Below the pieces are notes generated by a model, which was given only the letters and a program-made list of their open reading frames with translations, did not search any database and was not told the origin of the DNA. A stretch of DNA of 64,000 nt from an uncultured Mycoplasmatota bacterium (GTDB taxonomy: Bacteria; Bacillota_I; Bacilli_A; RF39; UBA660): assembly GCA_946488855.1 (NCBI GenBank), contig CAMLWC010000002.1:7292-71291 (forward strand). The letters are read 5' to 3'. The first letter of the stretch is position 1; every line of letters begins with the position of its first letter. This document shows, piece by piece, positions 2,555 through 21,613 of the stretch. The position numbers were made by a program, and so were the translations under genes.

Positions 2555-2596
2555 GATTATATTATATATGAATGCATATTCAACTGTCAATGATTT

Positions 2597-4853: not shown

Positions 4854-4923
4854 ATTAAATGTAGAATAGACTTCTATATTGGAATGACTTTTCTTATTTA
4901 TATAAGCATCTTCGAACTCAAAA

Positions 4924-4950
4924 ATGTTCCTGTGTAACCACCAAGATTGC
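4924..4950 (-). repeat. 27-nt att-like core, copy 1 (junction between two tandem elements)
   Basis: atgttcctgtgtaaccaccaagattgc is identical to 20533-20559. It lies 45 nt beyond the 3' end of the serine recombinase pseudogene and is followed by the paralogous first gene of the next element. Confidence 0.7.
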
Positions 4951-4994
4951 TGGACGTCGATTTTACTTGTAAAAAAAATTATTTGACATAATAT

Positions 4995-6577
4995 TTAATT
5001 TTCAAAATAAATATTTTTTATACTTCCATCTTTAAAATATATTTCTAAATTCATTTTATATCTAGTTTCTAATTTAGTAACTATAATTTTATCTAATAAT
5101 AAGTTTATAAATACATTTAAATTATATTTAACATTTAAAATGTTTTTTATTTCTTTTTCTACATCATTAATACTTGAAGGTATATCAATATCTTTTTTTA
5201 TATTCATTAATTGAGCATTTATTTTATTTATCTCATTTTCATTTTTATCTAGCTTAGTTTTTAAATCTTCATCAGAAATAATTTTAGATAAATTTAAATT
5301 TATTAATTTATCTTTATGACTTATTAATTCTTCAAGTTTGTTTTCTAAATCTATTTTTGTTTTATTATTCGATACAATTAAAACTTCATTATAAAGTTTA
5401 ATCATTTCATTAATTATATCTTTTAAATATTCTTTAATATATTTATTTATTATATTCTCCATTAACTCATCTAGTTTTTTTCCCTAATAATTAGAGATTC
5501 ACAAGTAAGTACTCCTTCATTCTTATATCTTTTGCATACCCAAGTAGGATTACTTCTTCTATTTGATCTAGCACACCTCACAAATATTTCATTATGCTCA
5601 CCACAATATATTTTATATGTATATCTAGATTTATCAATCATTGTCTGGCTCGACATAATATAAGTATTTCTTGCTTTGTGTTTTTTTTCATAAATTAAAT
5701 TTGCTTTATCCCATAATTCTTCAGATACTATTGGTTCAATCAAATCAGTTTTATATATTATATGTTCTTCTTTAGGTACTTTTATTTTTTCATGTGTCTT
5801 ATAACTTTCCACTTTTGTTAAATTAGCTGTATAATAACCCTTATATCTAGGATTAGTAAGGATTTTTTTTTAAGTAGTACCTGAATAGACTTTTCCATTT
5901 TTATTTTTATATCCTTTCTTACATAAGATATCCGCTATCTTTTCAAAAGAATATTTTCCAGTTACATATAAATTAAATAATGTCTCAATAATTGGTCTTT
6001 CTTCTTCATTAATAATCATTCTTCCATCTTTTTTATAATAACCAGTTAAATTACTACCAATTACTTTTCCATCTTTAATCATTCTTTTAATTCCAAATTT
6101 AACTCTTTCAGAAAGTTTTCTTACCTCATCTTGAGCAAGAGATGACATCAAGGTTAATCTGAATTCACTATCTGGATATATAGTATTAATATTATCACTT
6201 ATAAAAAATACTACTGTTCCATTATTTAAAAGTTCTTCAGTATATTTAATACTATCAATTACATTCCTAGAAAATCTAGATATTTCTTTTGTAACTATTA
6301 AATCAAGTTTCCCAGTTTTAGAATCCTCAATCATTCTTAAAAAATTATCTCTATTTTTTATACTAGTTCCACTTATACCTTCATCAATATATTCTCCGAC
6401 TAATTTCCAATTCTTATTTTCATTTATCATTTCTTTAAAATAATTAGATTGATTTTCCAAACTATTTAATTGATCATCTTTATCAGTAGATACTCTTGCA
6501 TAATAACCAACATTTAAATTCATATCAAAAATGGTTTTACCTAATAATAATTCGCTTCTAGTTTTTACAATATTCAT
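4995..6577 (-). pseudogene. Large serine recombinase (integrase), decayed
   Basis: Three consecutive ORF fragments. The first is the resolvase catalytic domain (YYARVSTDKDDQLNSLENQ). An in-frame TAA at 5870-5872 sits just before the ILTNPRYKGYY motif. The second is the recombinase/Zn-ribbon part (CGEHN..CARSN..WVCKRY..C). A frameshift lies around 5462-5473. The third is the coiled-coil C-terminus. Confidence 0.8.
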
Positions 6578-6695
6578 TTTCTTTTTCTTTCATTATTTTT
6601 TCGTTTGCTAATTTAAATTCTTCAAATGTTATTTTACCTTTTTGATATAACTCTTTATTGATTATTAATTTTAATTCTTTTAATATTTTTTTCAT
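6558..6695 (-). CDS. Small 45-aa ORF translationally coupled to the recombinase (function unknown)
   Basis: GGAGGT RBS 6 nt upstream of the ATG at 6695. Hand translation gives MKKILKELKLIINKELYQKGKITFEEFKLANEKIMKEKENEYCKN. It overlaps the recombinase start and is not in the supplied ORF track (too short). Confidence 0.35.
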   Translation of the reverse strand: MKKILKELKLIINKELYQKGKITFEEFKLANEKIMKEKENEYCKN

Positions 6696-6761
6696 ATATA
6701 CCTCCATTTTAATTTTATTAAAATTATTAGTAAATATGAAAAAAACAAGAATTCTTCTTGT

Positions 6762-7562
6762 TCAATAATTATTATTAGTATTATTCAAAAATGCAATTAA
6801 ATAATCAGCAACACCATCTTCATCATTACTTTTAGTAATATAGTCAGCATGCTTTTTTAATTGGTCAGTTGAATTTTCAACAGCTACTCCAATACCAGCA
6901 ATATCAATCATTGATATATCATTATTATCATTGCCAATTGCTATAGTATTCTTTATAGGAATATTTAAGTACTCTGCTAATACTTTTAAAGAATTACCTT
7001 TTGATGAATTAGAACTAATCACACTAAACCATAATTCTTCTTTATCCTCTCTTGATGAATCAACAACACATAAATTAGATTTTTGTTCAATTGATGATTT
7101 ATATTTTTTAACTAATTCTTTTTCTTTACTAATAATCATAATTTGTTTTATCTCTTTTTTTAATAATATATCGAGATTATTATCATCTAATAAAATCTGT
7201 GAATCATTTCTGGTAAACATTGTTACATATTCAGTATTTTCTGATACGAACATAACTCTAAGCCCAAGCTTCTTTGTTTCTTGATATATTATTTTACATT
7301 CCTCTTCTGGTAAATATGTAGAATAAATATTTTTTTTATTAATATTATCATAGATTTCTGTACCATTAGATGATATTAAATATTCATTTAAACCTACTTC
7401 ATTTGAAACCTTTAATGTATAATATCTTGGTCTTGCAGTGCAAATAACAACAGTATTTCCACATTCTACAACCTTTTTTATAATTTTTTTTGTTTTATCA
7501 GAGATATTACCATCAGAATGTCTTAATGTACCATCACTATCAATTGCAATTAAATATTTCAT
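6762..7562 (-). CDS. HAD-superfamily Cof-type (IIB) phosphatase
   Basis: DxDGT nucleophile motif (IAIDSDGTLR) and GDxxND motif (GNDNNDISM). 266 aa. Confidence 0.8.
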   Translation of the reverse strand: MKYLIAIDSDGTLRHSDGNISDKTKKIIKKVVECGNTVVICTARPRYYTLKVSNEVGLNEYLISSNGTEIYDNINKKNIYSTYLPEEECKIIYQETKKLGLRVMFVSENTEYVTMFTRNDSQILLDDNNLDILLKKEIKQIMIISKEKELVKKYKSSIEQKSNLCVVDSSREDKEELWFSVISSNSSKGNSLKVLAEYLNIPIKNTIAIGNDNNDISMIDIAGIGVAVENSTDQLKKHADYITKSNDEDGVADYLIAFLNNTNNNY

Positions 7563-7563
7563 A

Positions 7564-8106
7564 TTAATCTTTATCCATATTAATTATTTTGTTATATTCT
7601 TTAAAAATGTCTAGCATTTCTTCAACAATTACCTTGTTTATTGGATTATCAGGTATACTATCAATTAATACTTGTTCAACGTTTTCAATTGGGAAAGTTT
7701 TAACAGTAAAATTACCATCTTTTTCCCAATCATCTAATTTTGAATTGTTCATATCAAATTTAGCATCAGTATTTATAATATAATAATAAATATCATTTTT
7801 TCTATTCTTACCAGATCCATGATAATTTTTACTATAATAAGTAATTTTTTCAAATGGTTTTAATTTAGCATCTTTTATTTCTATTCCAGTTTCTTCTGAT
7901 ATTTCTCTTAATAAACATTCTTCTAAACTTTCACCATCCTCTAAATGACCACCTGGAAATTGGTAAGTTTTATGAGAATAGCCTAAAGTTATTTCATTAT
8001 TGCTATTGATAATCAAACCTTTTGTTCTAGTAACAACCTCATCAATATCTTCTAATTTTAAATTATCATAATTATATAATATTTCTTTCATACAACTACA
8101 CTCCAT
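7564..8106 (-). CDS. NUDIX hydrolase
   Basis: Complete Nudix box GGHLEDGESLEECLLREISEETGI. Confidence 0.85.
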   Translation of the reverse strand: MECSCMKEILYNYDNLKLEDIDEVVTRTKGLIINSNNEITLGYSHKTYQFPGGHLEDGESLEECLLREISEETGIEIKDAKLKPFEKITYYSKNYHGSGKNRKNDIYYYIINTDAKFDMNNSKLDDWEKDGNFTVKTFPIENVEQVLIDSIPDNPINKVIVEEMLDIFKEYNKIINMDKD

Positions 8107-8133
8107 TCTTTAATCAATTTATATTATATCACA

Positions 8134-9039
8134 TTATCTCAATAATTTTTTACTTTTGTTAAACAAAATATCATTATATAACTCATATTTAGGATACTTT
8201 TCTAGCCACATTAATGAGTTTAAACAATCAAAAAGTAATAATCTGTCATCAAATTTATCACCATTTATCACTTCAAAATTATTTTTTATAAAATTCATAA
8301 TGTTTCGAAAATCATAAGCAGTTAATATTATTTTTGAATTAGTGTTAAAGGAATTAGGATTTCTTGACATACGGTTTATAGGATCTAATTCCCTCTCAAC
8401 AAATGAACGTTTTATTTTTTCAAAATCAATTATTGATATTTTATTATCATCATTAACTAAAATATTATTAAAATGCAAATCCCCATGAATTAATCCAGTT
8501 TTTGCGCCTTCTAATAAATTTGGAATTATATTCTTTAATTCATATAAATAATGTATTTTTTCCTTATTTAAAATATTAGAATCTATAATTTTATTTAAGT
8601 AATTATCATATTCTTTTAACAGCAAATCTAAGCAATTATCATCAAAATGTGAATTATAATCAAGAGAATGTATTTTATCTAACTTTTCCAATAATTGAAC
8701 TAATATCTGTTGTTTTTCACTTTCTTTTAATAATGGCCATTTTAATAATAATGATTCTCCATTAATTTTTCTCTCTAAATAATACACATATGGAAAAGAC
8801 TTTTTCGTAAAATCACTAAATATCACCTTTGGAATAAATTCTAAAGTATCATTATTTAATAAAAATTCCACTTCTTTAATTGTACTATTATCTTTAATAG
8901 GATTAGTGACAATTTTCAAAATATATTTATCATTTATCTGATAAATCATTCTGCTATAACCAGAGGTTATTTGCTTTATACTTGTTATTTTTTCATTTAT
9001 ATTTTTTTCTATTATTTGTATTACTATTTCATTAGGCAT
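8134..9039 (-). CDS. APH/choline-kinase-family phosphotransferase
   Basis: Brenner motif LIHGDLHFNNILV followed by IIDFE (the HGDxxxxN...DFE pattern of aminoglycoside/small-molecule kinases). Confidence 0.75.
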   Translation of the reverse strand: MPNEIVIQIIEKNINEKITSIKQITSGYSRMIYQINDKYILKIVTNPIKDNSTIKEVEFLLNNDTLEFIPKVIFSDFTKKSFPYVYYLERKINGESLLLKWPLLKESEKQQILVQLLEKLDKIHSLDYNSHFDDNCLDLLLKEYDNYLNKIIDSNILNKEKIHYLYELKNIIPNLLEGAKTGLIHGDLHFNNILVNDDNKISIIDFEKIKRSFVERELDPINRMSRNPNSFNTNSKIILTAYDFRNIMNFIKNNFEVINGDKFDDRLLLFDCLNSLMWLEKYPKYELYNDILFNKSKKLLR

Positions 9040-9043
9040 ATAA

Positions 9044-9610
9044 TTACCTCCTTAATACTAATCTTTTATCATCTTTAATTAAATTAATATAATCATTTGG
9101 AGTATTTATATTGACAAATCCATCCCCAACATTAACAAAAGTTCTGTACTCTTCAAAATTATCAAATAAATGATAAAGAGAATGAAGACTATTATCTGAA
9201 TTATCTATTACACTCTTTAACAACTTATAATTATTTACTTTCACAGCAACAATAGCACGTTCATTACCATAAAAGCTTATGTTTTCACATATATCCTTTA
9301 TAATTATATCCATTGTTTTTTCATCATAATATGTATCTCCATATAAATAAGTTGTTGGATCATCAAGATAATCGTAAGCATACTTTTTATGAAAATAATC
9401 ATCATATTTTGAAACTATTCTCTTTGCATATTTACTTTCATGATTTTGATTACTTGATAATATATATATATCATCAGTTGACCTTTCTAAAATCATTCTA
9501 ATAGTTCTATCAATTAATCTTTCATTGTTAATAATAACTTCTTGTTTCGTAATTCCAAGATAATTATTCCATCTTGTTCCTTTGCCATCTGACATTATTA
9601 TATATTTCAT
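9044..9610 (-). CDS. Nucleotidyltransferase-fold protein (NTP-transferase/MobA-like, putative)
   Basis: N-terminal G-rich loop pattern IIMSDGKGTRWNNYLGITKQEVIINNERLIDRTI resembles sugar-/small-molecule nucleotidyltransferases. Confidence 0.5.
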   Translation of the reverse strand: MKYIIMSDGKGTRWNNYLGITKQEVIINNERLIDRTIRMILERSTDDIYILSSNQNHESKYAKRIVSKYDDYFHKKYAYDYLDDPTTYLYGDTYYDEKTMDIIIKDICENISFYGNERAIVAVKVNNYKLLKSVIDNSDNSLHSLYHLFDNFEEYRTFVNVGDGFVNINTPNDYINLIKDDKRLVLRR

Positions 9611-9619
9611 AATTCCACC

Positions 9620-10387
9620 CTAAAATTTACTAATTATCTTTTGAAGTTTTTTTGTTCTAGTTGAAAGATATTCTTGCTTATTCTCGATTGGCTCATAATA
9701 ATTTGTACCAGTGATCAATGAATCAGATATTACTAAAATTGGAAACCCTTCTTTTCCCATAATTTTCATACATTTACCAAATGAAGCAGTTTCTTGTTCA
9801 ATGCAAGACGCACCAAGTTTCATTATTTCTTGCATATGATAATATTCGCCTATTAATGTATCTGTCGAATAAACTCCACCATTTTTATACGAAAAATTAC
9901 TATTTTTTAAAACTCTCTCGATATGTTGTTTAATTTCAGTGCTAAAAAACATTTTATTAAAAAAATTGGCAGTTTCTATTTTCTTTTCAAAATATAATGA
10001 TGCCCCATCACCTGAAATGGAATAACATGGCATAAAAATGTCTCCTTCATGAACATTTTTATCCAAAGAACCAGCAGAACCTAAAAATATATATGGTGCA
10101 TCAATATTTCGCAATAGTAGTAAATTATCAAACATATTTGGTGCTCCTTTGCCAGTCTTAATAAATAATATTTTTTTATTATTATAATACAAAATAAATG
10201 TAGAAGTGCTTCCTATTTTCAAATTTTCAACACTATATTCTTCATTAAATACAAAATGTGGTTTCCAAGTTGGTGAAACAATCACTAAATCAAAATGTTG
10301 CTTATCATCTATATTCAATTTACTCATAGCTACATCGCTAAAAGAATAGTACTTTTTTAGTATATTATTTAATTCATTCTTATTCAT
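9620..10387 (-). CDS. Phosphorylase-superfamily (PNP/UDP/MTAN-fold) protein
   Basis: FLGSAGSLD and CIEQETASF resemble the GSxGxL and E(M/Q)E(x)A motifs of nucleoside phosphorylase/nucleosidase-fold enzymes. Confidence 0.5.
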   Translation of the reverse strand: MNKNELNNILKKYYSFSDVAMSKLNIDDKQHFDLVIVSPTWKPHFVFNEEYSVENLKIGSTSTFILYYNNKKILFIKTGKGAPNMFDNLLLLRNIDAPYIFLGSAGSLDKNVHEGDIFMPCYSISGDGASLYFEKKIETANFFNKMFFSTEIKQHIERVLKNSNFSYKNGGVYSTDTLIGEYYHMQEIMKLGASCIEQETASFGKCMKIMGKEGFPILVISDSLITGTNYYEPIENKQEYLSTRTKKLQKIISKF

Positions 10388-10500
10388 ATTAAATCTTTCT
10401 AACTAAACTTTTTATTTTTGGATTATTAAGATCCTGAATATTTTCGATGCCTAATTCACCCATTTTATCGCCTAAACACCATGTGCGATCATTTTCAAAA

Positions 10501-11313
10501 TCAGAATATATATATTTCACCATCAATTATTTCTCCAACTTCATAACCAGGTTTACAAATACATGTACATCCATAAATTTTATCATCAGGTGTAATACAA
10601 ACTTTTTTTACACCAGCACTACATCTGAAATTATTTGGTTTATTGACAGTATCACAACCAAAAGTTCCACTTCTTCTTACATCAAAATCATTTATATCAT
10701 ATTTATCTCTGGCTTGCTTTAATTGTGTAAAGAAACTATCATAATCTTCCCTTACTAATCCTATATTAGATAAATTTTTAGCTCTTCCTTGAATAAATAT
10801 TTTATTAAATTCAATTCCAGATGCACCTAGTTGATATGCGTTATCACATATTTGCAAAGTATCTTTTGCATTTTTATTTGTTATTGTTGTCATTAGAACA
10901 ACTCTAAGTCCTTTTTCTCTTAGCATTTTAATAACTGTATTTAACATCTCGTTGGTAATACCATTTAAGCTATCTTGTATTTCAAAATGATAAGACATAA
11001 ATACATTCCTTATTCCATTTTCTAATAATAAATCTATTATCTCTGGTTCTTGAAATATCCTAAGTCCATTTGTCATAATCCAATCTTGTCCAATTATTTT
11101 GTAAGAAGGTAAATATCCCAAGTCAACAAGTGGTTCGGCACCATCTATTCTTACTAATTTATATCTATTTTTATAATATTCTGCTAATTTTTTTAGTTCT
11201 TCTGGAGTTCTATTTCCAGTATATCCTATGTAACAATGATTGCAAGCAACATTACATTTTGAACAAGCCATTAATATAACTCTATTTCCTTCATATTTTT
11301 TCAACTCTCTCAT
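10501..11313 (-). CDS. Radical SAM enzyme with Cys-rich (SPASM/twitch-like) C-terminus
   Basis: CxxxCxxC cluster motif CNVACNHCY near the N-terminus. The C-terminal region holds several cysteines (FGCD..FRCSAGVKKVCITPDDKIYGCTCICKPG). Confidence 0.8.
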   Translation of the reverse strand: MRELKKYEGNRVILMACSKCNVACNHCYIGYTGNRTPEELKKLAEYYKNRYKLVRIDGAEPLVDLGYLPSYKIIGQDWIMTNGLRIFQEPEIIDLLLENGIRNVFMSYHFEIQDSLNGITNEMLNTVIKMLREKGLRVVLMTTITNKNAKDTLQICDNAYQLGASGIEFNKIFIQGRAKNLSNIGLVREDYDSFFTQLKQARDKYDINDFDVRRSGTFGCDTVNKPNNFRCSAGVKKVCITPDDKIYGCTCICKPGYEVGEIIDGEIYIF

Positions 11314-11315
11314 AT

Positions 11316-12200
11316 CTATTTTTCCTTTCTTAAAATCTTACTATTATCAAACCACCTGGGTTTCAACGAACTAAATTCATCTGAATAATCTAAAAATTTA
11401 TTAACAACTGTAACACCATCTTCCAATGTTTTATTACCCATTCTATTACAATAAAGTATATAATCCAAACAATATAATGAACCATATAAATTATATATTA
11501 TCCAAAAATTATCTGGGATACTATTATTAAAATATTCATTTATTAAAATTGTGTAAAATTTAGGATAATCTAAATTACAAGCATTTGTTGATAAATCTAT
11601 CCAGGCAAAATCGTTCTTACATACATCTAAATCTATAAAACAAATTCTATCATCATTAACTATTATATTTCCAGGATGAAAATCGCCATGTATAATACTT
11701 ATATCTAATTCTTTTAAATACTTAATATTATCTAAAACAAATGATTCTAAAACAGAAGATGTATAATCTATACCAAGATTTTTTAATTTATTTATTTTTT
11801 TATTAAATGACTTTATAAACTTATCATATATATCTGTTTTTGCATTTGTATCTATATTATGCATTTTTAATAGTTCTTCTGCAACTATTTTTCCATATTT
11901 AATAATTAAACTATCATCAATTAATAAATTATCTAAAGAAACTCCATCAATCCAATCTACAACAGCATAACCATGTTTATTATCAGAAAATTAACCAAAA
12001 TCATATATTTCAGGAACTGCTATTCCCTTATCATGTAAAATCCTAATATTATTAAAAGCTCTATATCTACTATCCATAAATCTTATATCATATAATCTTA
12101 GCATAAATATCTTATTATCTCTTTCAACAATATATTTTTGAACAGATGAACCACCTAATGGAAATTTTTTTATAATCTTATAACTATTAATACTATCCAT
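11316..12200 (-). pseudogene. APH-family phosphotransferase interrupted by one in-frame stop
   Basis: A single 295-codon frame from the ATG at 12200 (MDSINSYKII..). TAA at 11991-11993 falls between ..EIYDFG and FSDNKHGYAVVDW... Catalytic motif IIHGDFHPGNIIV..FIDLD lies downstream of the stop. Confidence 0.7.
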
Positions 12201-12864
12201 GTTTTTTCTCAAATAAAGTATGCTTATTAAAACTAAATATTCTATCTGACACTTTATCAATAAACTCATCTTCGTGTGATACTACAATTAAAGTCATATC
12301 TTCATCAACAAGTTCATTAATTAATTCCAGTACATTATCTTTCATTTCTTTATCTAAAGCACTTGTAGGTTCATCTAATAGGATAATATCTGGTTCCATT
12401 AATAAAGTTCTAGCAATAGCAACTCTTTGCTTTTGCCCTCCAGATAATTCATCTGGATATTTATCTTTTTTATCATCCAAATCTACTTTTTTTAAAATAT
12501 TTAAAGCTTTATGAACACTATCTTTTTTAGAATAACCCTTTATTTTAATTAAACCTATTATAAGATTATCTAATACAGTTAAGTGTTCAAATAAATTATA
12601 ATCTTGAAATACTATACCAATTTTTTGTCTTAATTCCACAAGAGATATTTCAGATATATCCATTCCTTTAAACTTTATCTTACCATCATTAATATTTTCT
12701 AAACGATTTATACACTTTAATAAAGTACTCTTTCCACTTCCACTTTTTCCTATTATAGAAATCACTTCTCCAGTTTTTATCTTTAAATTAACATTATTAA
12801 ATACCAGTTCATCTCCAAAATATTTAGATACATTTTCAAATTCTAATATGAAATCTTTTTTCAC
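12193..12864 (-). CDS. Amino-acid ABC transporter ATP-binding protein
   Basis: Walker A GKSGSGKST, ABC signature LSGGQKQR, Walker B ILLDEPTSALD. GlnQ/HisP-like size (223 aa). Confidence 0.9.
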   Translation of the reverse strand: MKKDFILEFENVSKYFGDELVFNNVNLKIKTGEVISIIGKSGSGKSTLLKCINRLENINDGKIKFKGMDISEISLVELRQKIGIVFQDYNLFEHLTVLDNLIIGLIKIKGYSKKDSVHKALNILKKVDLDDKKDKYPDELSGGQKQRVAIARTLLMEPDIILLDEPTSALDKEMKDNVLELINELVDEDMTLIVVSHEDEFIDKVSDRIFSFNKHTLFEKKHG

Positions 12865-13652
12865 GATTTCTTCACCACCCTCGGATTAATTTTCTTATAC
12901 ACTAAATCCAATAGTTTACAAAATGCATAACAAATTATAAAATATATAAGTGCTGTAAAGATTAATGGAAAGAATGCTTCATAAGTCCTATTTCTTATGA
13001 TATCAGTTGCTTTAGTTAATTCTATTACAGATATATAGCCGGCTATAGAAGTTGATTTTATTAATGAAACACTTTCATTTTTATAAACTGGTATTACATA
13101 CGAAAGCACTTGAGGAATAATTATATATCTAACTGTTTGAAGTTTAGTAAAACCTAAAGCATAAGCAGAATCAATTTGTGTTCTATTAATTGATAAAAAA
13201 GCTCCTTTAACAATCTCAGAAACATATGCAGAAAAATATATTGAGAATGCTATTATTGCAACTAAAATAGGTTCTATACTTATATCTCCAAAAATCCCAA
13301 AATAGAATGTTAATAATAATACTGTTACTGGAACCCCCTGTAAAAATCGTACTATTATATATGACAATATATTTAAAACCTTTATCTTTGATTTCTGTAA
13401 TAAGAACAAAATAAATCCTAATAGTGTGCCAAATACAATTGATAAGAATGAAATTAATAGAGTTGATTTTAATCCTTTAAAAAATAAAATATATCTTTTT
13501 TCAACAATTACTGTTCGATTAAAACTATCACTAATATCTTTAAAAAAATCGATAATTACATCTATACTAATAACTGTAACTATTAGTATAAGAAGTAATA
13601 TAATGAAGTACTTTATAAATTTAGTTTTGTTTTTCATTTTTTCCTCTAACAA
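12861..13652 (-). CDS. Amino-acid ABC transporter permease
   Basis: Multi-pass hydrophobic ORF with an EAA-loop-like IDSAYALGFTKLQTVRYIIIPQ, typical of the His/Glu/Gln/Arg permease family. Confidence 0.8.
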   Translation of the reverse strand: MLEEKMKNKTKFIKYFIILLLILIVTVISIDVIIDFFKDISDSFNRTVIVEKRYILFFKGLKSTLLISFLSIVFGTLLGFILFLLQKSKIKVLNILSYIIVRFLQGVPVTVLLLTFYFGIFGDISIEPILVAIIAFSIYFSAYVSEIVKGAFLSINRTQIDSAYALGFTKLQTVRYIIIPQVLSYVIPVYKNESVSLIKSTSIAGYISVIELTKATDIIRNRTYEAFFPLIFTALIYFIICYAFCKLLDLVYKKINPRVVKKS

Positions 13653-14418
13653 CTACTACAATTCCACCAGTATAATCCGGTTCTGAAAATAAAACAGATT
13701 TTTTTCTTTCTTCAGTAACTATAATCGAACATCCAGCTATATCTACCTTCCCTGATTTTAATGCTGGTATTATTCCATCAAATGACATTTCTATAACTTC
13801 CAATTTATAACCTAATTCTTTACAAATATAACTAATTACATCAATATCATATCCTACTATTTTATTGTTTTTCATATAAGCAAATGGTGCTGAACCAGAT
13901 ACTGTAGCGAATTTAACCACGCCTTTTGAATCATCATAATGGTAAACTTCTAATTCTTTCTTGCTTTCATCATTACCCATCCATTTATCCTCAAATATTT
14001 TTAATTTACCATTTTTATTCATCTTAACTAATTCTTTATTAATCTCATCCTGTAAATTACTTTTCGATGGATTAATAGCAAATGCATAACTATCCTCTGT
14101 TAATTTCTCTTTTAATATTCTTAAATCTTTATTTTCTTTTATTATTTCTTTAGCTAAAGGCTCATCTGTTAAGAAACCATCTATCTTACCAGATTTTAAA
14201 GCAGATATTTGATCACTATAACTGTTATAATATAAGATTTTAGGATTTTCTATATTATCTTGTGCTATAGTGTCATATTCAGAACCTGTATAAACGCCAA
14301 TATTTTTATTATTTAAATCATCTTTAGTTTCGATAATATTTAGTTTTTTTGAACAACCAGTTGTTATTAATATGACAGATATAATTATTAATAAATATTT
14401 ACTAAATTTTTTTAACAT
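13621..14418 (-). CDS. Amino-acid ABC transporter substrate-binding lipoprotein (family 3 SBP)
   Basis: Lipobox ITTGC after the signal peptide. Two-lobed SBP pattern (KIDGFLTDEP.., VDIAGCSIIVTEERK). Adjacent to the permease and ATPase. Confidence 0.75.
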   Translation of the reverse strand: MLKKFSKYLLIIISVILITTGCSKKLNIIETKDDLNNKNIGVYTGSEYDTIAQDNIENPKILYYNSYSDQISALKSGKIDGFLTDEPLAKEIIKENKDLRILKEKLTEDSYAFAINPSKSNLQDEINKELVKMNKNGKLKIFEDKWMGNDESKKELEVYHYDDSKGVVKFATVSGSAPFAYMKNNKIVGYDIDVISYICKELGYKLEVIEMSFDGIIPALKSGKVDIAGCSIIVTEERKKSVLFSEPDYTGGIVVVVRGKNEKQN

Positions 14419-15661
14419 ATTTTCTTTCTCCTATATCATCTGATGATACTATTTCAAAAGCATCATAAACTGCTTGCATCTTTCTTAATGTATCAAATTC
14501 ATCTACACCAGAAATTTGAACCCAACCAGATGCATCATTTCCAACCCGTCTTTTTTCACAATATTCTCCAGGTTTAACAAACATCTCTCCATCAATTACA
14601 CCATCCATTTTAAGAAGTTCTTCTAATGATGTAACTTTTTCTATTAAACCTGACTTATTAGGTAAATATAAATCACCTACACTAATAATGTCATCTCTAT
14701 ATTTTAAATTAACCTTTTTATGAATTGATATATCTATTAATGCATTAATCATATCAAATCCATATGATAAACTATGATTCTTAGTTGCTTGACAACCAGG
14801 TAATCTCCAACCTAATTCACTTGGCATTACGTTACCATCTCTATCAATAAAGACCTCTATTGTCATTGCTCCATTTTTCAAATTCATACCATCAACTATT
14901 TTTTGAATTAATTCTTTAGGAACAAATTTGAAATACTCAGGAACTTTTGGAACCGTCATATGACAATTTAATTTATTATCCATAGCCGCCCACAAAGTTC
15001 TATTTGGAATATATGTAACATATGAATCTAAAACAACACCATCTTGAACTAAACTTTCTATTGACCATTCTTGATCAGAGCAATATGATTCAACCATATA
15101 TTTTTCAGTTGTTAAATCAATATTTATCTGTTCTAATTCATCTAATGACTCTATTTTATAAACATTTTTACTATTCATTAAATCTCTTGGTTTAAATATA
15201 ATTGGCTCACCAACATGTTTTCTCATAAATTGTAAAATATCCTTTTTAGAAGTAACAACTTGATAATCAACTGTTTTCAAACCAATTTGATTAAATTTAT
15301 CTTTCATAGCAACTTTATCTCTTACCCAACTAACTTGATCTTCACTTAATGCATCAAGTCCAATACTTCTAGCAACCTTATTAGCAAATTCCATATAAAA
15401 TTCTGAATTATTTAAGAAATAATCAATTTTATATCCTTTATGCTGTAACCAATTATCACGGAATATATGAATATCAAAATCGGTATATGAATAAGGAAAT
15501 GCATAAAAATCTCTATATTTATCCATATACTCCTTACTGAAATATCTAAAACTCTTAACATTTCTAAAAAAAAGCGTGTTAATATCATCCCTTTTACGTA
15601 ATGCATATGAAAGATCAGAATCGTACTCTTCAAAACATAACAGCATTTTTTTATCCGCCAT
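14402..15661 (-). CDS. ATP-grasp-fold ligase (putative)
   Basis: 419 aa with ATP-grasp-like segments (PIIFKPRDLMNSKNVYKIES.., TIEVFIDRDGNVMPSELGWRLPG). Assigned by pattern only. Confidence 0.55.
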   Translation of the reverse strand: MADKKMLLCFEEYDSDLSYALRKRDDINTLFFRNVKSFRYFSKEYMDKYRDFYAFPYSYTDFDIHIFRDNWLQHKGYKIDYFLNNSEFYMEFANKVARSIGLDALSEDQVSWVRDKVAMKDKFNQIGLKTVDYQVVTSKKDILQFMRKHVGEPIIFKPRDLMNSKNVYKIESLDELEQINIDLTTEKYMVESYCSDQEWSIESLVQDGVVLDSYVTYIPNRTLWAAMDNKLNCHMTVPKVPEYFKFVPKELIQKIVDGMNLKNGAMTIEVFIDRDGNVMPSELGWRLPGCQATKNHSLSYGFDMINALIDISIHKKVNLKYRDDIISVGDLYLPNKSGLIEKVTSLEELLKMDGVIDGEMFVKPGEYCEKRRVGNDASGWVQISGVDEFDTLRKMQAVYDAFEIVSSDDIGERKYVKKI

Positions 15662-15663
15662 AT

Positions 15664-16575
15664 TTATCTAATTCTCCTTTCAATTGTTTTGGCAAATGTT
15701 CTTATAGCATTAGCCTTAATATCTTCATCATCAATATACTTTATTAAAAGATCTGGCTCTGATAATTCAACTTCCATTATCATAGGTTTATTATCAACCA
15801 ACACCATATCTACTCTCATGTATAAATAATTATTAAACTCTGGTATTTTCTCTACCTTTTTAGCTAGTTGAATTATACTTTCTGGAACTTTTTTAACTAA
15901 ATAAGTTTTTTTCTTTTCATGAAATACATTTGGAAATCTAAGCATAGTATGAGTTAATACACCACCTATAAAGATACATGAATATTCACCATCATTTATA
16001 TTAGATATAAATGGTTGAACCATTAACATACAATCTTTATTTTTTTCTAATATAGCTTTATATGTTTTTAAAATATCTGATTTTTTTAACGTATTTGGTG
16101 TATTATTACTATTAAATTCATCTACAAGATAAGTATTTTCACCACTTCCTGATATTGTTGGTTTTATTACATAAGGTTTATTATCAAATAAATCTATTTT
16201 TTTTAAGTTAGATAGATTTAAAAACATTGTATTTATAAAGTTTATATTATTCTTTTTCAATATTTCAAATTGAATATTTTTCATAATATTCTTTAAAATC
16301 ATATCAGGATTATTTAATAAAAGAATATTGTTATTTTTTATATATAATAACCAATTTTTAAATTTTTCAAAATCGTTTTGATATCCCCATACTGATCTTA
16401 ATATGAGTGCATCATAATTGCCATCAACTGGTTGTTGCCAAGAAATAATTTTAGTTTCTATACCCAAATCACTTAATGCATTTTTTAAAAACATATCTTC
16501 ATCTATTTTATTAATCCATTTATCACAAGATACTATTGCTACTTTTTTCATACTTATCTCAACTTTCTTAAACAT
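15664..16575 (-). CDS. ATP-grasp-fold ligase (RimK-like, putative)
   Basis: YVIKPTISGSGENTYLV, MLMVQPFISNINDGEYSCIFIGG and YMRVDMVLVDNKPMIMEVELSEP match the usual ATP-grasp strand pattern. Confidence 0.55.
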   Translation of the reverse strand: MFKKVEISMKKVAIVSCDKWINKIDEDMFLKNALSDLGIETKIISWQQPVDGNYDALILRSVWGYQNDFEKFKNWLLYIKNNNILLLNNPDMILKNIMKNIQFEILKKNNINFINTMFLNLSNLKKIDLFDNKPYVIKPTISGSGENTYLVDEFNSNNTPNTLKKSDILKTYKAILEKNKDCMLMVQPFISNINDGEYSCIFIGGVLTHTMLRFPNVFHEKKKTYLVKKVPESIIQLAKKVEKIPEFNNYLYMRVDMVLVDNKPMIMEVELSEPDLLIKYIDDEDIKANAIRTFAKTIERRIR

Positions 16576-18074
16576 TTATTCATCGCACTAAAGTGTTCTA
16601 CTAAATCTTCCCTTGGTAATGCTGTAGTAACTCTTCCTATAAGTTGTTCCTCATTTGGCCATGATATTGATTGTCCTAAAATAAGTTTAATTTTTTCTTG
16701 TTCATACATATATTTAAGCAATTCTTTCTCATCACTAATTATTCTTCCATTTTCTGCAACTTTATTTTTTAATTGGGTAAAATCTAACATTTCAAAAAAG
16801 CCTGAATCTGGTAATGTTCCATTTACAAAGTCAACATTTTGTATTCCATCTAAAATTTGACTTATGTTATAACCAAAACCATAATTTCTTATATCACTCT
16901 CAATTTGTACTTTTACGTTACTATCTTCAATAAAATCTATACCATTAATTAATGCTTTCAATAATTCTAAACGATATTTATATTCAGCAATAATTGGATT
17001 AAAATAGTTATCATATTCTTTTTTTCGTCTTTCAGATACATTAAATGCACCAGCTAATGCTCTACCTTGTAATACTGGTGAAGAATCCATTGTCTGAAAA
17101 ATCCTATTTCGTATTGCCCTAATTATTATTTCATTTGCAACTATCATACCAGATCTAATTGACGCTAAACCATAAGATTTTGATAAACCAGTTATTGTTA
17201 TTGTATTGTCAAAAAATTTTTCATAAGATGCCATTGGCTTTGCTAAATTGTCTCTATCATAAGTTAAATCTCTATATATTAAGTCATCTATAACAAATAC
17301 ACCTTTTGATAAACACACATTTCCAATACCCTCAAGTATTTCTTTATTATTTTCATTCATCACTTTTCCTAAAGGATTATGTGGGTTTTCATTTAAAAAT
17401 GCAACAACTTTTGGTGTATACCCTAAAGATTCACCGTATTTATCTTTTAAATTTAAATTAATTTCATCTATTCTTTTAGATAGTTTTTGTGGATTAACAT
17501 ACCAATTATCTTCTTCAGATAACGGTAATATCTCAACAGTTGCTCCAGAAATACGTTCAGGAACAAAAGTAAATAAGCCATAATTAGGGCCAGTCATCAA
17601 TATTACATCATGAGGCCTAGCAATAATGCTTGAAATAATATTAAATGCATGTGTAGAGGAAACCGTAAAGATAATATTATCTTTTGATAATTCACTATTA
17701 CTCTTAAATCCTTCTTGTTTTAAATACTCTAAAATTGTTATTCTTGATTCTTCGTCACCGGCTGCCATAGGATAATCTGATAGTTCATCGCTATCAATTA
17801 TCTTAATTAGTTCTTCTTTACATAAAGGAAATGCAGGTGTTCTCATTGGACTACCACCACCAAGTGATCTAGAAGATATGTTTTTTATTCTTTCATTTTC
17901 AAGTGCATATAAATCATTTCCATATAATCCAAAAGCATCATAAATTTTACTAACTTCTTTAGAAAAGTGACCATCAACTAAGTTTTCTCCTAAATTGGGT
18001 AACCCTCTAACAGGATGTTCTAAAATTGGATTTTTTTCTATAACTCGTTTTAATGAATCAGGTATACTTTGCAT
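16554..18074 (-). CDS. PLP-dependent aminotransferase, class I/II fold
   Basis: 506 aa. PLP-lysine context ITGLSKSYGLASIRSG, NENPHNPLG (the NPxNPTG-like motif) and VIDDLIYRDL. Confidence 0.8.
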   Translation of the reverse strand: MQSIPDSLKRVIEKNPILEHPVRGLPNLGENLVDGHFSKEVSKIYDAFGLYGNDLYALENERIKNISSRSLGGGSPMRTPAFPLCKEELIKIIDSDELSDYPMAAGDEESRITILEYLKQEGFKSNSELSKDNIIFTVSSTHAFNIISSIIARPHDVILMTGPNYGLFTFVPERISGATVEILPLSEEDNWYVNPQKLSKRIDEINLNLKDKYGESLGYTPKVVAFLNENPHNPLGKVMNENNKEILEGIGNVCLSKGVFVIDDLIYRDLTYDRDNLAKPMASYEKFFDNTITITGLSKSYGLASIRSGMIVANEIIIRAIRNRIFQTMDSSPVLQGRALAGAFNVSERRKKEYDNYFNPIIAEYKYRLELLKALINGIDFIEDSNVKVQIESDIRNYGFGYNISQILDGIQNVDFVNGTLPDSGFFEMLDFTQLKNKVAENGRIISDEKELLKYMYEQEKIKLILGQSISWPNEEQLIGRVTTALPREDLVEHFSAMNKCLRKLR

Positions 18075-18159
18075 ATAATCACCTCAAACTACAAATATTA
18101 TATAATAATAAAGTTCATTTTAATCATTCAAAAATTCGATAAACTATATATAAAAAACT

Positions 18160-18191
18160 AATAATAAAAGACTAATTAAATCAATTAGTCT
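18160..18191 (-). terminator. Putative rho-independent terminator after the LysR-Nudix unit
   Basis: 9-bp perfect stem agactaatt/aattagtct (18169-18191) overlapping the stop codon, followed on the minus strand by a T-rich tract. Confidence 0.5.
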
Positions 18192-18696
18192 CTTTCATTA
18201 AAGGTATTACATACTCTTCTATTCTTGGAATTAAAACCCATGCTATTTCACCATTTTCAATCATATTATACAACTCTTTCAAATCAATCCATTTTGCTTG
18301 AACAGCGGTATTGTCTACAAAACATATATCATTTAAATCAATATCTTTATTAACAATATAAGTTTCATAAATATAATGATAAGGATCACGTAATTTTGTA
18401 TCTATTTTTTTAATATCAAAATTTGAAATTTTTATTCCAATTTTAGCAGCAATTGCCCTAATACATGTATCAGTTGGACTTTCACCACTTAAAACATTGC
18501 CATTAATACTATTCCAAAAACCAGGATAATGTATATTATAATTTAAAGTATTTCGTATTAATAGTAATTGATTTTTTGAATTTAAAATCCATGTATTTAT
18601 AGAGTAATGATACTTACCATCTGGTATTTCATCAGTATCATTTATAACGATTCCAGTATTATTAAATTTATCATCATATAAATCCCATCTACTCAT
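18181..18696 (-). CDS. Nudix-like protein with degenerate Nudix box
   Basis: GNVLSGESPTDTCIRAIAAKIGI keeps the G..GE spacing but lacks the REUxEE acidic residues. ATGA-type overlap with the LysR gene. Confidence 0.45.
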   Translation of the reverse strand: MSRWDLYDDKFNNTGIVINDTDEIPDGKYHYSINTWILNSKNQLLLIRNTLNYNIHYPGFWNSINGNVLSGESPTDTCIRAIAAKIGIKISNFDIKKIDTKLRDPYHYIYETYIVNKDIDLNDICFVDNTAVQAKWIDLKELYNMIENGEIAWVLIPRIEEYVIPLMKETN

Positions 18697-19592
18697 TATA
18701 ATTCCTCCTTATATTGTTTTTTTAATATGTTTATAAATCTAGAGATATTTTTAGAATTTTTTGATTTTTTGTGAACAATATATATATTATCATTAAATAA
18801 TTCTTCTGTTACTTTTATTTCTTTTATTTCACCACTTGCAATTTCTTCTTTAAAAAACTCTTTATTTCCAAAACATAATCCTAAATTGTTTTTTACTAAT
18901 TCTTTAGATAATATACTATCATTAATTGAAATAACATTTTCAAATAATATTCCATTTTCAAAACACATTTTTTGGAATTTACCATTTTTCTTATTTGGAC
19001 ACATTGATATTAGTTTTGTATTTCCAAGTTCTTTAATAGATACAACAAATTCATAATTTTTGGATAACTCTTTACCTGAAACAAAAACATTACTTAATGT
19101 ACATAATAACTCTTTATTATCAGCATTTATTAAATTTGTATAATCTTCGTAGTCAATAACAATATCATATTCATCCTCATATTTTTTTACATCTAATTTT
19201 GAATAAAGTTTCATATTAATATGAATATTTGGATACATATTCATAAATTCAACTATAGCATCTTTAAATATAAAATCAGATAGGTAATGTCTAATTCCAA
19301 TAGTTATTTCCATAGTATTTGGATTATCAAATTGTTCTAAATTTTGATTTAAAATACTAAAAGCTGATTTTAGATTTTCATATAAGTTATATCCATCTTC
19401 AGTTAATTCAAAATTTTTATTATCTCTAATAATTAATACTTTATCTAATTGCAGTTCTAATTGTTTAATATTGTAACTTAAGGATGATTGAGCAATATTT
19501 AAATTTTTTGATGCATTTGTAAAGCCATTATAATAAACTACATAATAAAAATATTTAAACAAATTTAAATTAAAATTATTCATAAATATCAC
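18696..19592 (-). CDS. LysR-family transcriptional regulator
   Basis: N-terminal wHTH FTNASKNLNIAQSSLSYNIKQLE followed by a roughly 200-aa substrate-binding-type domain. 298 aa. Confidence 0.8.
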   Translation of the reverse strand: MIFMNNFNLNLFKYFYYVVYYNGFTNASKNLNIAQSSLSYNIKQLELQLDKVLIIRDNKNFELTEDGYNLYENLKSAFSILNQNLEQFDNPNTMEITIGIRHYLSDFIFKDAIVEFMNMYPNIHINMKLYSKLDVKKYEDEYDIVIDYEDYTNLINADNKELLCTLSNVFVSGKELSKNYEFVVSIKELGNTKLISMCPNKKNGKFQKMCFENGILFENVISINDSILSKELVKNNLGLCFGNKEFFKEEIASGEIKEIKVTEELFNDNIYIVHKKSKNSKNISRFINILKKQYKEEL

Positions 19593-19643
19593 CTATTAAC
19601 ATATATTATAACATACATCATTCATTTATATAAATACGTTAAC

Positions 19644-20423
19644 TTATTTTTTTTCTAAATAATATAAATCAATAGATTTATATTTTGATATTTCATAACT
19701 CATTATAATATATGGCATTATAATATCTATATCTTCTTCTTTTAACACTTTAAAATATCTACATAAAGGCTCATAATTAGTTCTACTTACTATATTAAGA
19801 ATATTATTGTTATCTTCAACATCTAATAATCTAACATAAATACCATATTTCCTTTTAGATAAAATAGTAAAGTTTCTTTTATTTCTAAATACTAATCCTT
19901 TATTTGTAGTATGGAAAGTAACATTAGAATTAATAGAATTAATTTTAAATGATAAAGTATTAAATAAGTTATCTATTGAATCAATATTAGATTCTGATAT
20001 ATATGAATAATAATTTCTAATTAACTCAATTACATAATTTAAATTTTCTAATTTATCTACTTTAAAATAATAACAAAAACTAGATTTTTCATAGCCTTTT
20101 CTTATTAAGAGTTTATCATCATAATCAAATTGCTTTATATTCTTATGTAATGAGATTAAAATATCTGATTGATCTACTTGTATTTCGATTATCTTTTTAC
20201 CAAATCTATAAACAACATTTTTTATTAAATAGTTTCTTTTAATATTGTCACTAATACTTAAAATTTGCTTATCAAACTCATCAAACAATTCAATGGCAAT
20301 ATCTTTTTTATTATAAATTATATCTTCATAACAACTTGTATCTACATTTAGTAATTTAGTTTTTCTTTCTGATTCTTCTTTATCAATACTAGAAATAACA
20401 TTAACATCAAACATATCAATCAC
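19644..20423 (-). CDS. Hypothetical protein, paralogue of 4011-4853 (first gene of inner element)
   Basis: See 4011-4853. It begins about 110 nt after the 27-nt att-like core at 20533-20559. Confidence 0.4.
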   Translation of the reverse strand: MIDMFDVNVISSIDKEESERKTKLLNVDTSCYEDIIYNKKDIAIELFDEFDKQILSISDNIKRNYLIKNVVYRFGKKIIEIQVDQSDILISLHKNIKQFDYDDKLLIRKGYEKSSFCYYFKVDKLENLNYVIELIRNYYSYISESNIDSIDNLFNTLSFKINSINSNVTFHTTNKGLVFRNKRNFTILSKRKYGIYVRLLDVEDNNNILNIVSRTNYEPLCRYFKVLKEEDIDIIMPYIIMSYEISKYKSIDLYYLEKK

Positions 20424-20532
20424 TTCATTATTTGAATATTGTACTCCATTGTATATTAAATTATATGTAGAACAAACCTCTAGTTTGGTAGATTAATTTA
20501 TATTATTTGTAAGTTTTTCAACAAACACAAAT

Positions 20533-20559
20533 ATGTTCCTGTGTAACCACCAAGATTGC
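20533..20559 (-). repeat. 27-nt att-like core, copy 2 (junction PBP gene / inner element)
   Basis: Identical to 4924-4950. Its upstream side reads in frame as the end of the PBP remnant (..VVENSC-N). Confidence 0.7.
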
Positions 20560-21613
20560 AAGAGTTTTCAACAACCTGTAAGAATGTTTGATCTCCATGA
20601 CCGCCATGTTTCTAACAATGAATAGTAGCCCCACCTACTTTAACAGCACCACTATCAAAAAAATGTTCTTCTTCTAAATTGACAATATTTTCTTCTAAAG
20701 CTGTTGCTAGAGTAATTATTTTGAAAGTAGAACCTGGTTCATATGTCATCCATATAGGTAAATTACGATTAATAATTTCAGTTGAATAATTCTCATAGTT
20801 ACTAGGTTCAAATGTAGGACGTGAAGCCATTGCTAATACTTCTCCAGTTTTAGGATTCATAACAATACCTAACGCTTGATCAGGATTATATTTACTAACT
20901 GCATTATCTAGTTCTCTTTCCAAAGCAGATTGAATATTATAATCAACTGTTAAATAAACATCTATACCATCTTGTGGTTGTTCATATATTTCGGACAATT
21001 CTAATTTATTCCCTTTAGCATCACTAAAAAATTTAATAGCTCCATAACTTCCTGTTAAATAATCATCATACATAAGTTCTAAACCAGATAATCCTTGATT
21101 ATCGATACCTACAAAACCTAAAGTATGAGCAAGCATACTACCATATGGATAATATCGTTTACTTTCTTTTAATAAATATACTCCTGGTAAATCAAGATCA
21201 TTTATTTTATCTGCTGTTTCATAATCTAATCTTCTACCTTCAGGATGAACTCTTTCAATAGAAGATTTTACTGAAACATGATCATACATTTCTTCATAAG
21301 TAACACCTAAAATAGGTGCGATTAATTCAGCAGTTTTTTCTTTATCTTCAATTTGATTAGGTATTAAAACTAAAGAAGTTGTTGTTATATTATCAGCTAA
21401 TACAACACCGTTTCGATCGTATATTTTTCCCCTATTAGCTTCAATTGGTAAATTTCTACTCCATAAACTAGTAGCATAATTATTTAATTTTTCATAAGAA
21501 AATACTTGAATATAAAAAACTTTACCAATTATCAAAATAAAAAATAAAAATATAACTAACATAACTATTTTAATTCTTATATGAATATTTTTAAAAAACA
21601 TATACTCACCCAT
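20555..21613 (-). pseudogene. Class B penicillin-binding protein (SpoVD/PBP2B-like), truncated at SxN motif and carrying a nonsense codon
   Basis: N-terminal TM helix, dimerisation domain and SxxK active site (EPGSTFKIITLA). TAG at 20612-20614 sits where homologues have Trp (..IHC*KHGGHGDQTFLQVVENSCN). Homology ends at SCN (the SxN motif) where the att-like core begins. No KTG region is present in the window. Confidence 0.85.

Follow-up and report, generated by a model that had tools for sequence, protein, structure and literature searches.

Why does the gene for a class B penicillin-binding protein (PBP), on a 64,000-nt stretch of DNA from an uncultured Mycoplasmatota bacterium (contig CAMLWC010000002.1; the whole stretch is called the window below), lose its likeness to its orthologues at the SxN catalytic motif, inside a 27-nt sequence that is repeated exactly some 15.6 kb away? 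The gene is spoVD, encoding the sporulation-specific class B PBP, of which the window holds the 5' two-thirds. Comparison with related contigs makes it very probable that spoVD was split at SxN by two head-to-tail elements of the large serine recombinase (LSR) type, at a site that serves as attB, the bacterial attachment site, for a family of such elements. The proposed arrangement would be spoVD-5' / AA-P'1 ... element 1 ... LSR1-P1 / AA-P'2 ... element 2 ..., where P and P' are the arms contributed by the elements. A first-pass annotation of the window had described a PBP open reading frame (ORF) that is normal through the transmembrane helix, the dimerisation domain and STFK but carries TAG at a conserved Trp; homology that stops within a repeat identical at 20533–20559 and 4924–4950; about 100 nt of similar sequence and a paralogous gene after each copy; and the 3' end of a decayed LSR just before the second copy. 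From this it had read a PBP 5' half, then element 1, some 15.6 kb long with the recombinase at the far end, and then element 2. Domain searches, translation, an exact repeat search and the related loci bore all of this out, with the refinement that spoVD identity reaches 4–6 nt into the repeat (GC-AA-TC). The features on which the argument turns are:

20558..21613 (-), spoVD 5' part, pseudogene, codons 1–352 plus AA of Asn353 (Pfam, translation, orthologue alignment)
20533..20559 (-), repeat copy 1, attL of element 1 (comparison of attB, attL and attR)
4949..20555 (-), element 1, 15.6 kb from P' arm to P1 arm (start-to-start spacing of the repeats 15609 nt)
6558..6695 (-), 45-amino-acid (aa) ORF just upstream of the recombinase (no family match)
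4995..6577 (-), large serine recombinase LSR1, pseudogene (Pfam Resolvase, Recombinase, Zn_ribbon_recom)
4949..4994 (-), P1 arm, non-coding, from the LSR1 stop codon to the crossover (...TTTTTTTTACAAGTAAAATCGACGTCCAGC) (related contigs)
4924..4950 (-), repeat copy 2, tandem junction of P1 arm, AA and element 2 P' arm (related contigs)
1..4946 (-), element 2, proximal 4.9 kb, running off the left end of the window and continuing past position 1 (Pfam)

The spoVD part in the window encodes a transmembrane helix, PBP_dimer and, with its STFK and SCN motifs, the beginning of Transpeptidase; Pfam matched both domains on the ORF at 20612–21613 (-). Homologue searches with this part returned proteins of 636–640 aa with PBP_dimer, Transpeptidase and PASTA domains, to which it is 94–95% identical where they overlap. 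For P0004, an intact orthologue among them that shows 95% identity there and of which the window has residues 1–353 only, the NCBIfam equivalog TIGR02214 (stage V sporulation protein D) gave 736.5 bits against a cut-off of 688. When aligned, intact orthologues read ...STFK...IHCWKHGG...VVENSCNPGFV (...VVENSCNPGFVELG...) and continue past SCN, so that these PBPs neither end nor diverge naturally at the junction. The window frame reads ...STFK...IHC-TAG-KHGGHGDQTFLQVVENSCN and then LGGYTGT (translated past the TAG, ...QTFLQVVENSCN, then LGGYTGT...), departing from the orthologues after Ser-Cys-Asn, inside the exact repeat. The TAG arose from TGG at 20612–20614, the codon of Trp334. A TAG-shortened product of 333 aa was called on at least five contigs from other samples; the mutation is therefore real and fixed in the strain lineage rather than an assembly error. 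Recoding of TAG was considered and rejected, because TAG is an ordinary stop here, closing 12 of the 47 long ORFs in the window. In relatives, uninterrupted spoVD has a Cse60 gene and a SpoVB-like gene upstream; downstream of it lie mraY, a gene of 286 aa and a SEDS gene of spoVE type. The host DNA has ∼24% G+C, and the relatives are labelled by their sources as Bacilli, Tenericutes, Candidatus Faecisoma merdavium and Acholeplasma sp. CAG:878.

The 27-mer, ATGTTCCTGTGTAACCACCAAGATTGC on the plus strand, occurs exactly twice in the window. No third copy was found there at up to three mismatches (0 matches in 100 shuffles), and the 27-mer is not a dispersed repeat. To the left of each copy lie ∼70–140 nt of DNA that are 74–75% similar. 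The attachment sites were deduced by comparing attB (contig L018), attL (L005, L019) and attR (L009–L017) in related contigs, and aligning the junction with uninterrupted orthologues in this way gave the following sites:

attB, intact gene in L018: GTAGTTGAAAACTCTTGT-AA-TCCAGGGTTTGTAGATT
attL, L005 and L019: the same left arm as attB, then -AA-TCTTGGTGGTTACACAGGAACAT
attR, L009–L017: AAAAAATGTTCGTGTGTCGACACAAAGC-AA-TCCAGGG...
tandem junction, second copy in the window: ...ACAAGTAAAATCGACGTCCAGC-AA-TCTTGGTGGTTACACAGGAACAT

In L005 and L019 the flank beyond the junction is that found after the second copy in the window. In L009–L017 the ORF of a 579-aa LSR extends into the junction, beyond which lie a 292-aa spoVD 3' product (MSTQSNPGFV...), mraY and spoVE. 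Hosts with AAC as the Asn codon have AGC-AA-CCCAGG at attR, while attL always reads AA-TCTTGG. Across hosts, AA is the only sequence common to attB, attL, attR and the tandem junction, and it is therefore likely to be the 2-bp crossover. The insertion point deduced from these alignments is this AA, the first two bases of the Asn codon in the catalytic SxN motif. In every one of the 81 intact genes examined, of which 80 come from species representatives, the residues encoded at attB are ENSCNPGF or QNSCNPGF.

Read on the minus strand, copy 1 consists of GC (the end of the spoVD B arm), the crossover AA at 20556–20557 and TCTTGGTGGTTACACAGGAACAT, a 23-nt P' half-site at 20555–20533. In copy 2 the crossover lies at 4947–4948 and the P' half-site at 4946–4924, and the flank on its element 2 side is identical to attL of element 2 in other hosts. 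The 27-mer would thus comprise 2 nt of left arm, the crossover and a P' half-site predicted to be bound by the recombinase, which would explain an exact repeat within flanks that are only ∼75% alike. The elements with the 579-aa LSR have a P arm, ATGTTCGTGTGTCGACACAAAGC, that agrees with the reverse-complemented P' arm at 17 of the 23 positions flanking the central AA; this imperfect dyad symmetry, with a core of AA only, is the architecture of an LSR attP, a site of about 50 bp. Identity of P' is not universal, since a variant of element 1 in L021 has a different inner P' arm (TTGGAATAAATACAGGAACAT). At the far end of element 2, attR would be expected to take the form ..TCGACACAAAGC-AA-(T/C)CC... 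Target-site duplication by a transposase or tyrosine integrase was rejected as the origin of the repeat: no such gene lies at the ends, and what follows copy 2 is element DNA, not spoVD.

The P1 arm, which with few substitutions also precedes the spoVD 3' half in L129, retains the inner TCGAC...AGC of other P arms. That it is a decayed P arm was rejected, as the same arm stands beside intact recombinases in L114 and L129. The motif of its outer 13 nt, TTTTTTA(C/G)A(A/G)GTA (compared at window 4949–4994, L114:860–950, L126 and L129:1400–1480), is also present in spoVD B arms, at an equal distance from the crossover, and there encodes T-F-L-Q-V. The likeness may be chance, or it may mark a B-type half-site that permits tandem integration or landing at attR1.

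Related loci support the proposed order, since each element type is also found at the site by itself. Element 2 alone abuts spoVD 5' halves in L005, L019, L112 and L113, and its flank did so in 12 of the 13 JGI contigs found with a 25-mer of the P' arm, on at least six different B-arm alleles; L112 and L113 combine a host SpoVD only 69% identical to the query with an element that is 94–99% identical. In L129, an intact LSR1-type recombinase and a P1-type arm lie directly against AA-TCCGGGATTTGTAGATT, the spoVD 3' half (MPSNPGFV...) and mraY. Both types of element therefore use the same attB independently. The tandem junction itself (LSR1 3' end, P1, AA, P'2) recurs with few base differences in at least five assemblies (L020, L022, L024, L114, L126), in L114 together with an intact 527-aa LSR1-type gene, and the order is always spoVD-5', element 1, element 2. 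Element 1 is 99.5–100% identical in at least 14 contigs from other samples.

LSR1, which ends 44 nt before the second repeat copy, is broken into three ORFs (5870–6577, 5471–5812 and 4995–5462). The first carries the N-terminal resolvase domain (PF00239, E=4.5e-32) with the catalytic motif YARVSTDKDDQ. The fragments match PF07508 and PF13408 weakly, both domains being recorded on the 579- and 587-aa relatives, and a coiled coil is pointed to only by composition and a weak PUMA_CC match. The defects were read by three-frame translation against the L009 LSR and by alignment to the intact 527-aa L114 relative and to L021. They are a nonsense codon, TTA to TAA at 5870–5872 (codon 236), where L021, L027, L114 and L129 keep TTA, and a frameshift, a 1-nt deletion in an A-run near 5476. 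The deletion (∼5470–5480) is common to all 14 contigs with the same 155-aa C-terminal ORF, from many samples; it reflects either recent death of the gene in a widespread clone or a frame rescued by slippage on the A-run. The L129 recombinase is 91% identical to the N-terminal part of LSR1 and 95% identical to the L114 gene. The L009 relative matches PHROG 95 (integrase) at 2e-108, whereas models of the Ccr recombinases gave 129.8 bits (CcrB) and 110.2 bits (CcrC) against cut-offs of 900, so the enzymes do not belong to the Ccr family. On these domain matches they are generic LSRs, predicted to catalyse attP x attB recombination. The 45-aa ORF upstream of LSR1 shares LI(I/V)NKELY...(Y/F) with an 80-aa ORF upstream of the 579-aa LSR (L009:3971–4213), and the two are conceivable accessory or directionality factors.

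The distal part of element 2 lies beyond the end of the contig, and its content was therefore read in relatives. Contig L002, 99.97% identical to window 1–3318, extends the element by tnpB, cupin, HxlR, two radical SAM genes, csoR-copZ-copA and a helix-turn-helix (HTH) gene; by blastn it had no overlap with L009 and the other attR contigs. A gene near-identical to this last one (P0243, 99%) led to L110, which has a complete element of 17.6 kb, from the P' arm (L110:2396) to attR (∼L110:19970). Its order is DUF5655, arsR, HMA gene, cadA, radical SAM genes, csoR-copZ-copA, HTH gene, Rce1-like genes, mazE, hydrolase, a 574-aa coupling protein of a type IV secretion system (T4SS), the 80-aa ORF and a 579-aa LSR, which is adjoined by attR and the next piece of spoVD. 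The window part of element 2 and L002 are collinear with it at 96–99.5% identity, insertions of the IS605 family apart. By homology, we infer that element 2 of the window would end in the coupling protein, the 80-aa ORF, a 579-aa LSR and attR, followed by the spoVD 3' part, mraY and spoVE. The coupling protein, of TraG/VirD4 type, was the transfer gene recognised in the relatives, with no relaxase or mating-pair genes recognised there.

The doubled junction could have other origins. The left end, that is the 27-mer with its DUF5655 gene, appears duplicated and no piece of spoVD separates the copies, which would suit a single composite element with an internally duplicated left end rather than two insertions. 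The two DUF5655 genes (19644–20423 and 4011–4853), however, are only 46% identical (over 228 aa), the recombinase 3' end and P1 arm beside copy 2 are also joined to a spoVD 3' half in L129, and element 2 occurs alone in many hosts; we consider a composite highly improbable. That an assembler joined two strains at their shared 27-mer might be suspected of a metagenome contig at ∼8.6x coverage, when several related contigs break near the junction. Yet 27 nt is less than the usual assembly k-mers, and both junctions occur in independent assemblies (ENA, Logan and JGI contigs) with single-nucleotide differences. Recurrence of the tandem junction in other assemblies excludes an assembly artefact, and such a chimera deserves practically no credence. 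Two insertions thus remain the preferred reading, and the tandem would have arisen by a second LSR integration, the target being a hybrid site (attR of element 1, or else attL of element 2), an accretion comparable to that in the composite islands of the staphylococcal cassette chromosome (SCC) or in arrays of integrative and conjugative elements (ICE) with cis-mobilisable elements (CIME). As the same P' half-site is present at attL1 and at the internal junction, the element 2 recombinase might in principle cut out either element 2 by itself or the entire array. Several points weigh against this account. Canonical LSRs recombine attP with attB only, so that tandem formation needs a non-canonical event, which we cannot specify. 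The P1 arm is without the outer ATGTTCNTGTGT of other arms and is not dyad-symmetric with P'. The analysis identified no directionality factor, the 45-aa ORF, the 80-aa ORF and DUF5655 being candidates only, and the 13 JGI contigs with the P' arm included no circular attP junction, so that excision left no direct trace there. This genome's own spoVD 3' half and second recombinase were not recovered, its contig, NODE_101 of ENA ERZ15844776, ending in an IS605 tnpB copy ∼1 kb past position 1; the 3' half that had been predicted beyond element 2 is found in relatives, where 3' halves adjoin recombinases. Finally, a role of spoVD in the sporulation of this lineage is a prediction from the family model and the neighbours (Cse60, spoVE, SpoVB-like).

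Would the gene ever be restored? Not in this strain: a nonsense codon interrupts spoVD, LSR1 carries a frameshift as well as a nonsense codon, and IS605 elements lie inside element 2. Element 1 can therefore no longer move by itself, and excision cannot restore spoVD, whose TAG would remain. What the window holds is a fossil, and the first-pass impression that it looked fossilised was right for this strain. Uninterrupted alleles with the same flanks exist (L018, L028 and others), and a restored window gene would still carry TAG. A working developmental switch here, in which both elements leave in the mother cell and spoVD is restored, would fit an architecture like that of skin and SPbeta and the identical P' half-sites at both left junctions; it is scarcely credible given a TAG upstream of the junction, beyond repair by excision, fixed across samples and read as a normal stop in this window, and given the two lesions in LSR1. 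In intact relatives, conservative excision would rebuild spoVD exactly. By analogy with skin and SPbeta, such excision may be coupled to sporulation, a possibility to which we give rather less than an even chance. We are evenly divided on the alternative that the invariant SxN stretch is a safe harbour, in a gene that vegetative cells can do without or in a lineage on its way to losing sporulation, and that excision even in intact relatives serves transfer only, with none coupled to sporulation. Relatives of element 2 carry the T4SS coupling protein and resistance cargo and no phage genes, and spread of element 2 at ∼99% identity among hosts with SpoVD only 69% identical points to horizontal transfer; spoVD has simply decayed in this strain, and at least three elements within the gene on one contig are easily explained if the gene is not under selection. 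Against this, 77 of 80 listed species representatives, in a scan that favoured long matches, retain full-length spoVD, so the gene is still selected; the layout, with an LSR at the edge beside the 3' fragment, matches skin and SPbeta; and elements of this kind classically target mother-cell genes (PMC4191935, PMC5595907). A sigma-70 promoter scan around the junction was at background (28 sites vs 26.5 expected) and uninformative.

Site 1, at SxN, is not the only place at which spoVD is interrupted in relatives. Truncated forms made up 38 of the 120 best N-terminal spoVD homologues, and C-terminal fragments fall into three classes: ∼290–298 aa, corresponding to site 1, with at least six different leader peptides, and thus several P-arm types; ∼347–348 aa, starting MVGTFKIITL, corresponding to a site at the STFK catalytic serine; and ∼208–220 aa, corresponding to a site after GQGVSVTPIQ. 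In L110 each of these three sites holds a recombinase element (one with a 576-aa LSR, the 17.6-kb relative of element 2 and a third element), which leaves the gene in four pieces or more. An LSR stands at the element edge beside a spoVD 3' fragment in L009–L017, L110–L112 and L129, and LSR1 of the window at the edge of element 1 beside element 2. Most species representatives keep spoVD intact: a GTDB scan with full-length SpoVD, anchored on N-terminal peptides and ranked by match length, from which no frequencies can be derived, returned mostly intact genes and only three splits at site 2. Further sites were read at L110:2225–2404, L110:19955–20170, L115:779–958 and L112:16080–16301 and in L085, L096 and L100, and P0121 hints at another, between ...GGA and TIHCW.

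These sites invite a wider reading, in which spoVD is a landing pad where LSRs find three attB sites or more, including one on the STFK codons and one on the SxN codons, up to three independent excisions are needed to rebuild the gene in the mother cell, promoter capture may time them, and P1 mimicry assists integration. Taken as a whole we regard it as unlikely. For promoter capture, the spoVD promoter could read into the DUF5655 gene, the conserved first gene of each site-1 element, which is co-directional with spoVD and, in element 1, separated from it by no terminator-like site in a scan around the junction, DUF5655 being a possible directionality factor. For P1 mimicry, the P1 arm may copy the left half of attB, so that one integration would regenerate the site for the next. 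If true, no accretion system driven by LSRs would have been known within a coding sequence before this one.

Genes known to be split by elements of this kind are sigK, spsM, spoVFB, spoVR, gerE and yabG (PMC4191935, PMC5595907, PMC10747680, bioRxiv 10.1101/2022.02.25.481979). We found no natural interruption of spoVD by an intervening element in the literature searched, the sole related match being a laboratory secondary site of ICEBs1. The locus resembles skin/SpoIVCA in sigK (Bacillus subtilis, Clostridioides difficile), vfbin (spoVFB), vrin (spoVR), gin (gerE) and yin (yabG) in that an LSR element lies inside the coding sequence of a sporulation gene (PMC4191935, PMC5595907, PMC10747680, bioRxiv 10.1101/2022.02.25.481979). 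The recombinase likewise lies at the edge beside the 3' fragment, and conservative excision would rebuild the gene. It differs from these systems in its target, spoVD; in elements that are not prophage-like and bear resistance or biosynthetic cargo, with a coupling protein in relatives; in two elements in tandem at one site, with two more sites in the gene of relatives; and in that the window copy is dead. With SPbeta/SprA-SprB in spsM of B. subtilis it shares an LSR, a short common att core and a split mother-cell gene, and in SPbeta a small accessory protein determines directionality (PMC4191935, PMC5499854). Unlike the present elements, in which no phage genes or recombination directionality factor are recognisable, SPbeta is an active phage.

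The tandem has parallels elsewhere. In SCCmec and SCC composite islands (CcrAB/CcrC at rlmH), LSR-mobilised elements lie head to tail with direct-repeat att half-sites between them, and some units are without a working recombinase and depend on a neighbour. Unlike those, the recombinases here are not Ccr and the target is a catalytic motif inside a coding sequence rather than the 3' end of a gene, so that insertion inactivates spoVD. In the ICE-CIME pairs of ICESt1/ICESt3 of Streptococcus thermophilus, a transfer-capable element stands in tandem with a decayed relative that retains att sites and is mobilised in cis; here too a tandem includes a decayed member, but the enzymes are serine recombinases rather than tyrosine integrases acting at the fda 3' end, and for serine recombinases tandem integration is mechanistically unexpected. 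The comK prophage of Listeria (A118/phi10403S-type LSR) lies in a coding gene whose function is restored by excision. Its 'active lysogeny' is also discussed in PMC10747680. There the gene, the trigger and the phage nature of the element are different. Three traits of the spoVD system are unusual: its non-phage cargo, its accretion in tandem and the occurrence of several LSR sites within a single gene.

These findings add spoVD to the short list of sporulation genes that recombinase elements interrupt, and do so in gut Bacilli that are uncultured, have reduced genomes and may or may not sporulate. The elements target the DNA of invariant catalytic motifs, a target that cannot drift, which explains landing at the same base in hosts with SpoVD only 69% identical. 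They also define predicted pairs of recombinases (579, 587 and 527 aa) and attachment sites (40-bp attB, 48-bp attP, AA crossover), which are wanted for genome engineering. For annotation, 'PASTA domain' or 'PBP' proteins of 290, 348 and 420 aa in many metagenome-assembled genomes are pieces of one split gene. The window copy is a decayed example, functionally uninteresting in itself.

The cargo of element 1 (6762..19592, minus strand, Pfam and NCBIfam) follows its first gene:

19644..20423 (-), DUF5655 protein, 259 aa, first gene of element 1 (Pfam PF18899)
18696–19592 (-), LysR regulator
18181–18696 (-), NUDIX
16554–18074 (-), aminotransferase dependent on pyridoxal phosphate (PLP)
15664–16575 (-), DcsG-like ATP-grasp enzyme
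14402–15661 (-), L-amino-acid-ligase-like ATP-grasp enzyme
12193–14418 (-), amino-acid ABC transporter
11316–11864 and 8134–9039 (-), APH-type kinases
10501–11313 (-), radical SAM
9620–10387 (-), PNP_UDP_1
7564–8106 (-), NUDIX
6762–7562 (-), HAD hydrolase

From its annotation the cargo is a predicted LysR-regulated cluster for small-molecule biosynthesis and transport. The aminotransferase, DcsG-like (D-cycloserine synthetase-like) and ligase-like genes at 14402–18074 (-), beside the LysR and ABC transporter genes, look like a peptide or amino-acid antimetabolite cluster. The DUF5655 protein and the 80-aa ORF had no matches in NCBIfam, PHROGs or PDB sequence searches. An AlphaFold model of DUF5655 from a 2-sequence alignment had a mean pLDDT of 57.7, and its best fold match, the T4 MotA DNA-binding domain (E=6e-3, TM-score 0.63 on the target), was weak and of low confidence. 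L021:1–5347, aligned to window 4873–8434 and 20460–22130, is a variant of element 1 without window 8435–20459, a 12-kb deletion. In it the spoVD region of the host is only 90% identical, compared with 99.5% for the element part, a pattern that suggests horizontal movement or recombination of element 1.

The part of element 2 in the window carries, by Pfam:

4011–4853 (-), DUF5655
∼2598–3998 (-), decayed IS605-family TnpB
2142–2504 (-), arsR
1893–2117 (-), HMA protein
19–1887 (-), CadA-type P-type ATPase

With its continuation in relatives, the cargo of element 2 is annotated as cadmium and copper resistance genes. The IS605-family tnpB copies are ∼90% identical to one another: a decayed one at 2598–3998, an intact one (393 aa) at 42603–43784 within 42437–43861, and one at a contig end, L001:12377–12877. 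They are the likely reason for the assembly breaks inside element 2. The HTH gene of element 2 is 96–99% identical in hundreds of contigs (P0243, P0255, P0262, P0271, P0313), assigned by their sources to different candidate genera (Faecisoma, Coprovivens, Ventrenecus), and the element family thus spreads widely among gut Bacilli. Viral contigs had no match to the P' arm, and PHROGs matched the recombinase only, with nothing phage-like.

Upstream of spoVD, a long run of large ORFs at 24025–47300 is without Pfam or NCBIfam matches for the most part. It includes a 1109-aa protein (37961–41290), a DUF2357 protein (24025–25149) and a 509-aa protein (25167–26696) with a Walker-type GxxGxGKT, the last two of which may form a McrBC-like pair. 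Relatives have different genes at this position, so the region is variable. Beyond it lie genes for an FtsK/SpoIIIE family protein (49567–51780), enolase (52754–53998), MurD (55540–56877) and a bacteriocin-type peptidase-ABC exporter (58589–60625); these ordinary chromosomal genes and the exporter mark the right part of the window as host chromosome.

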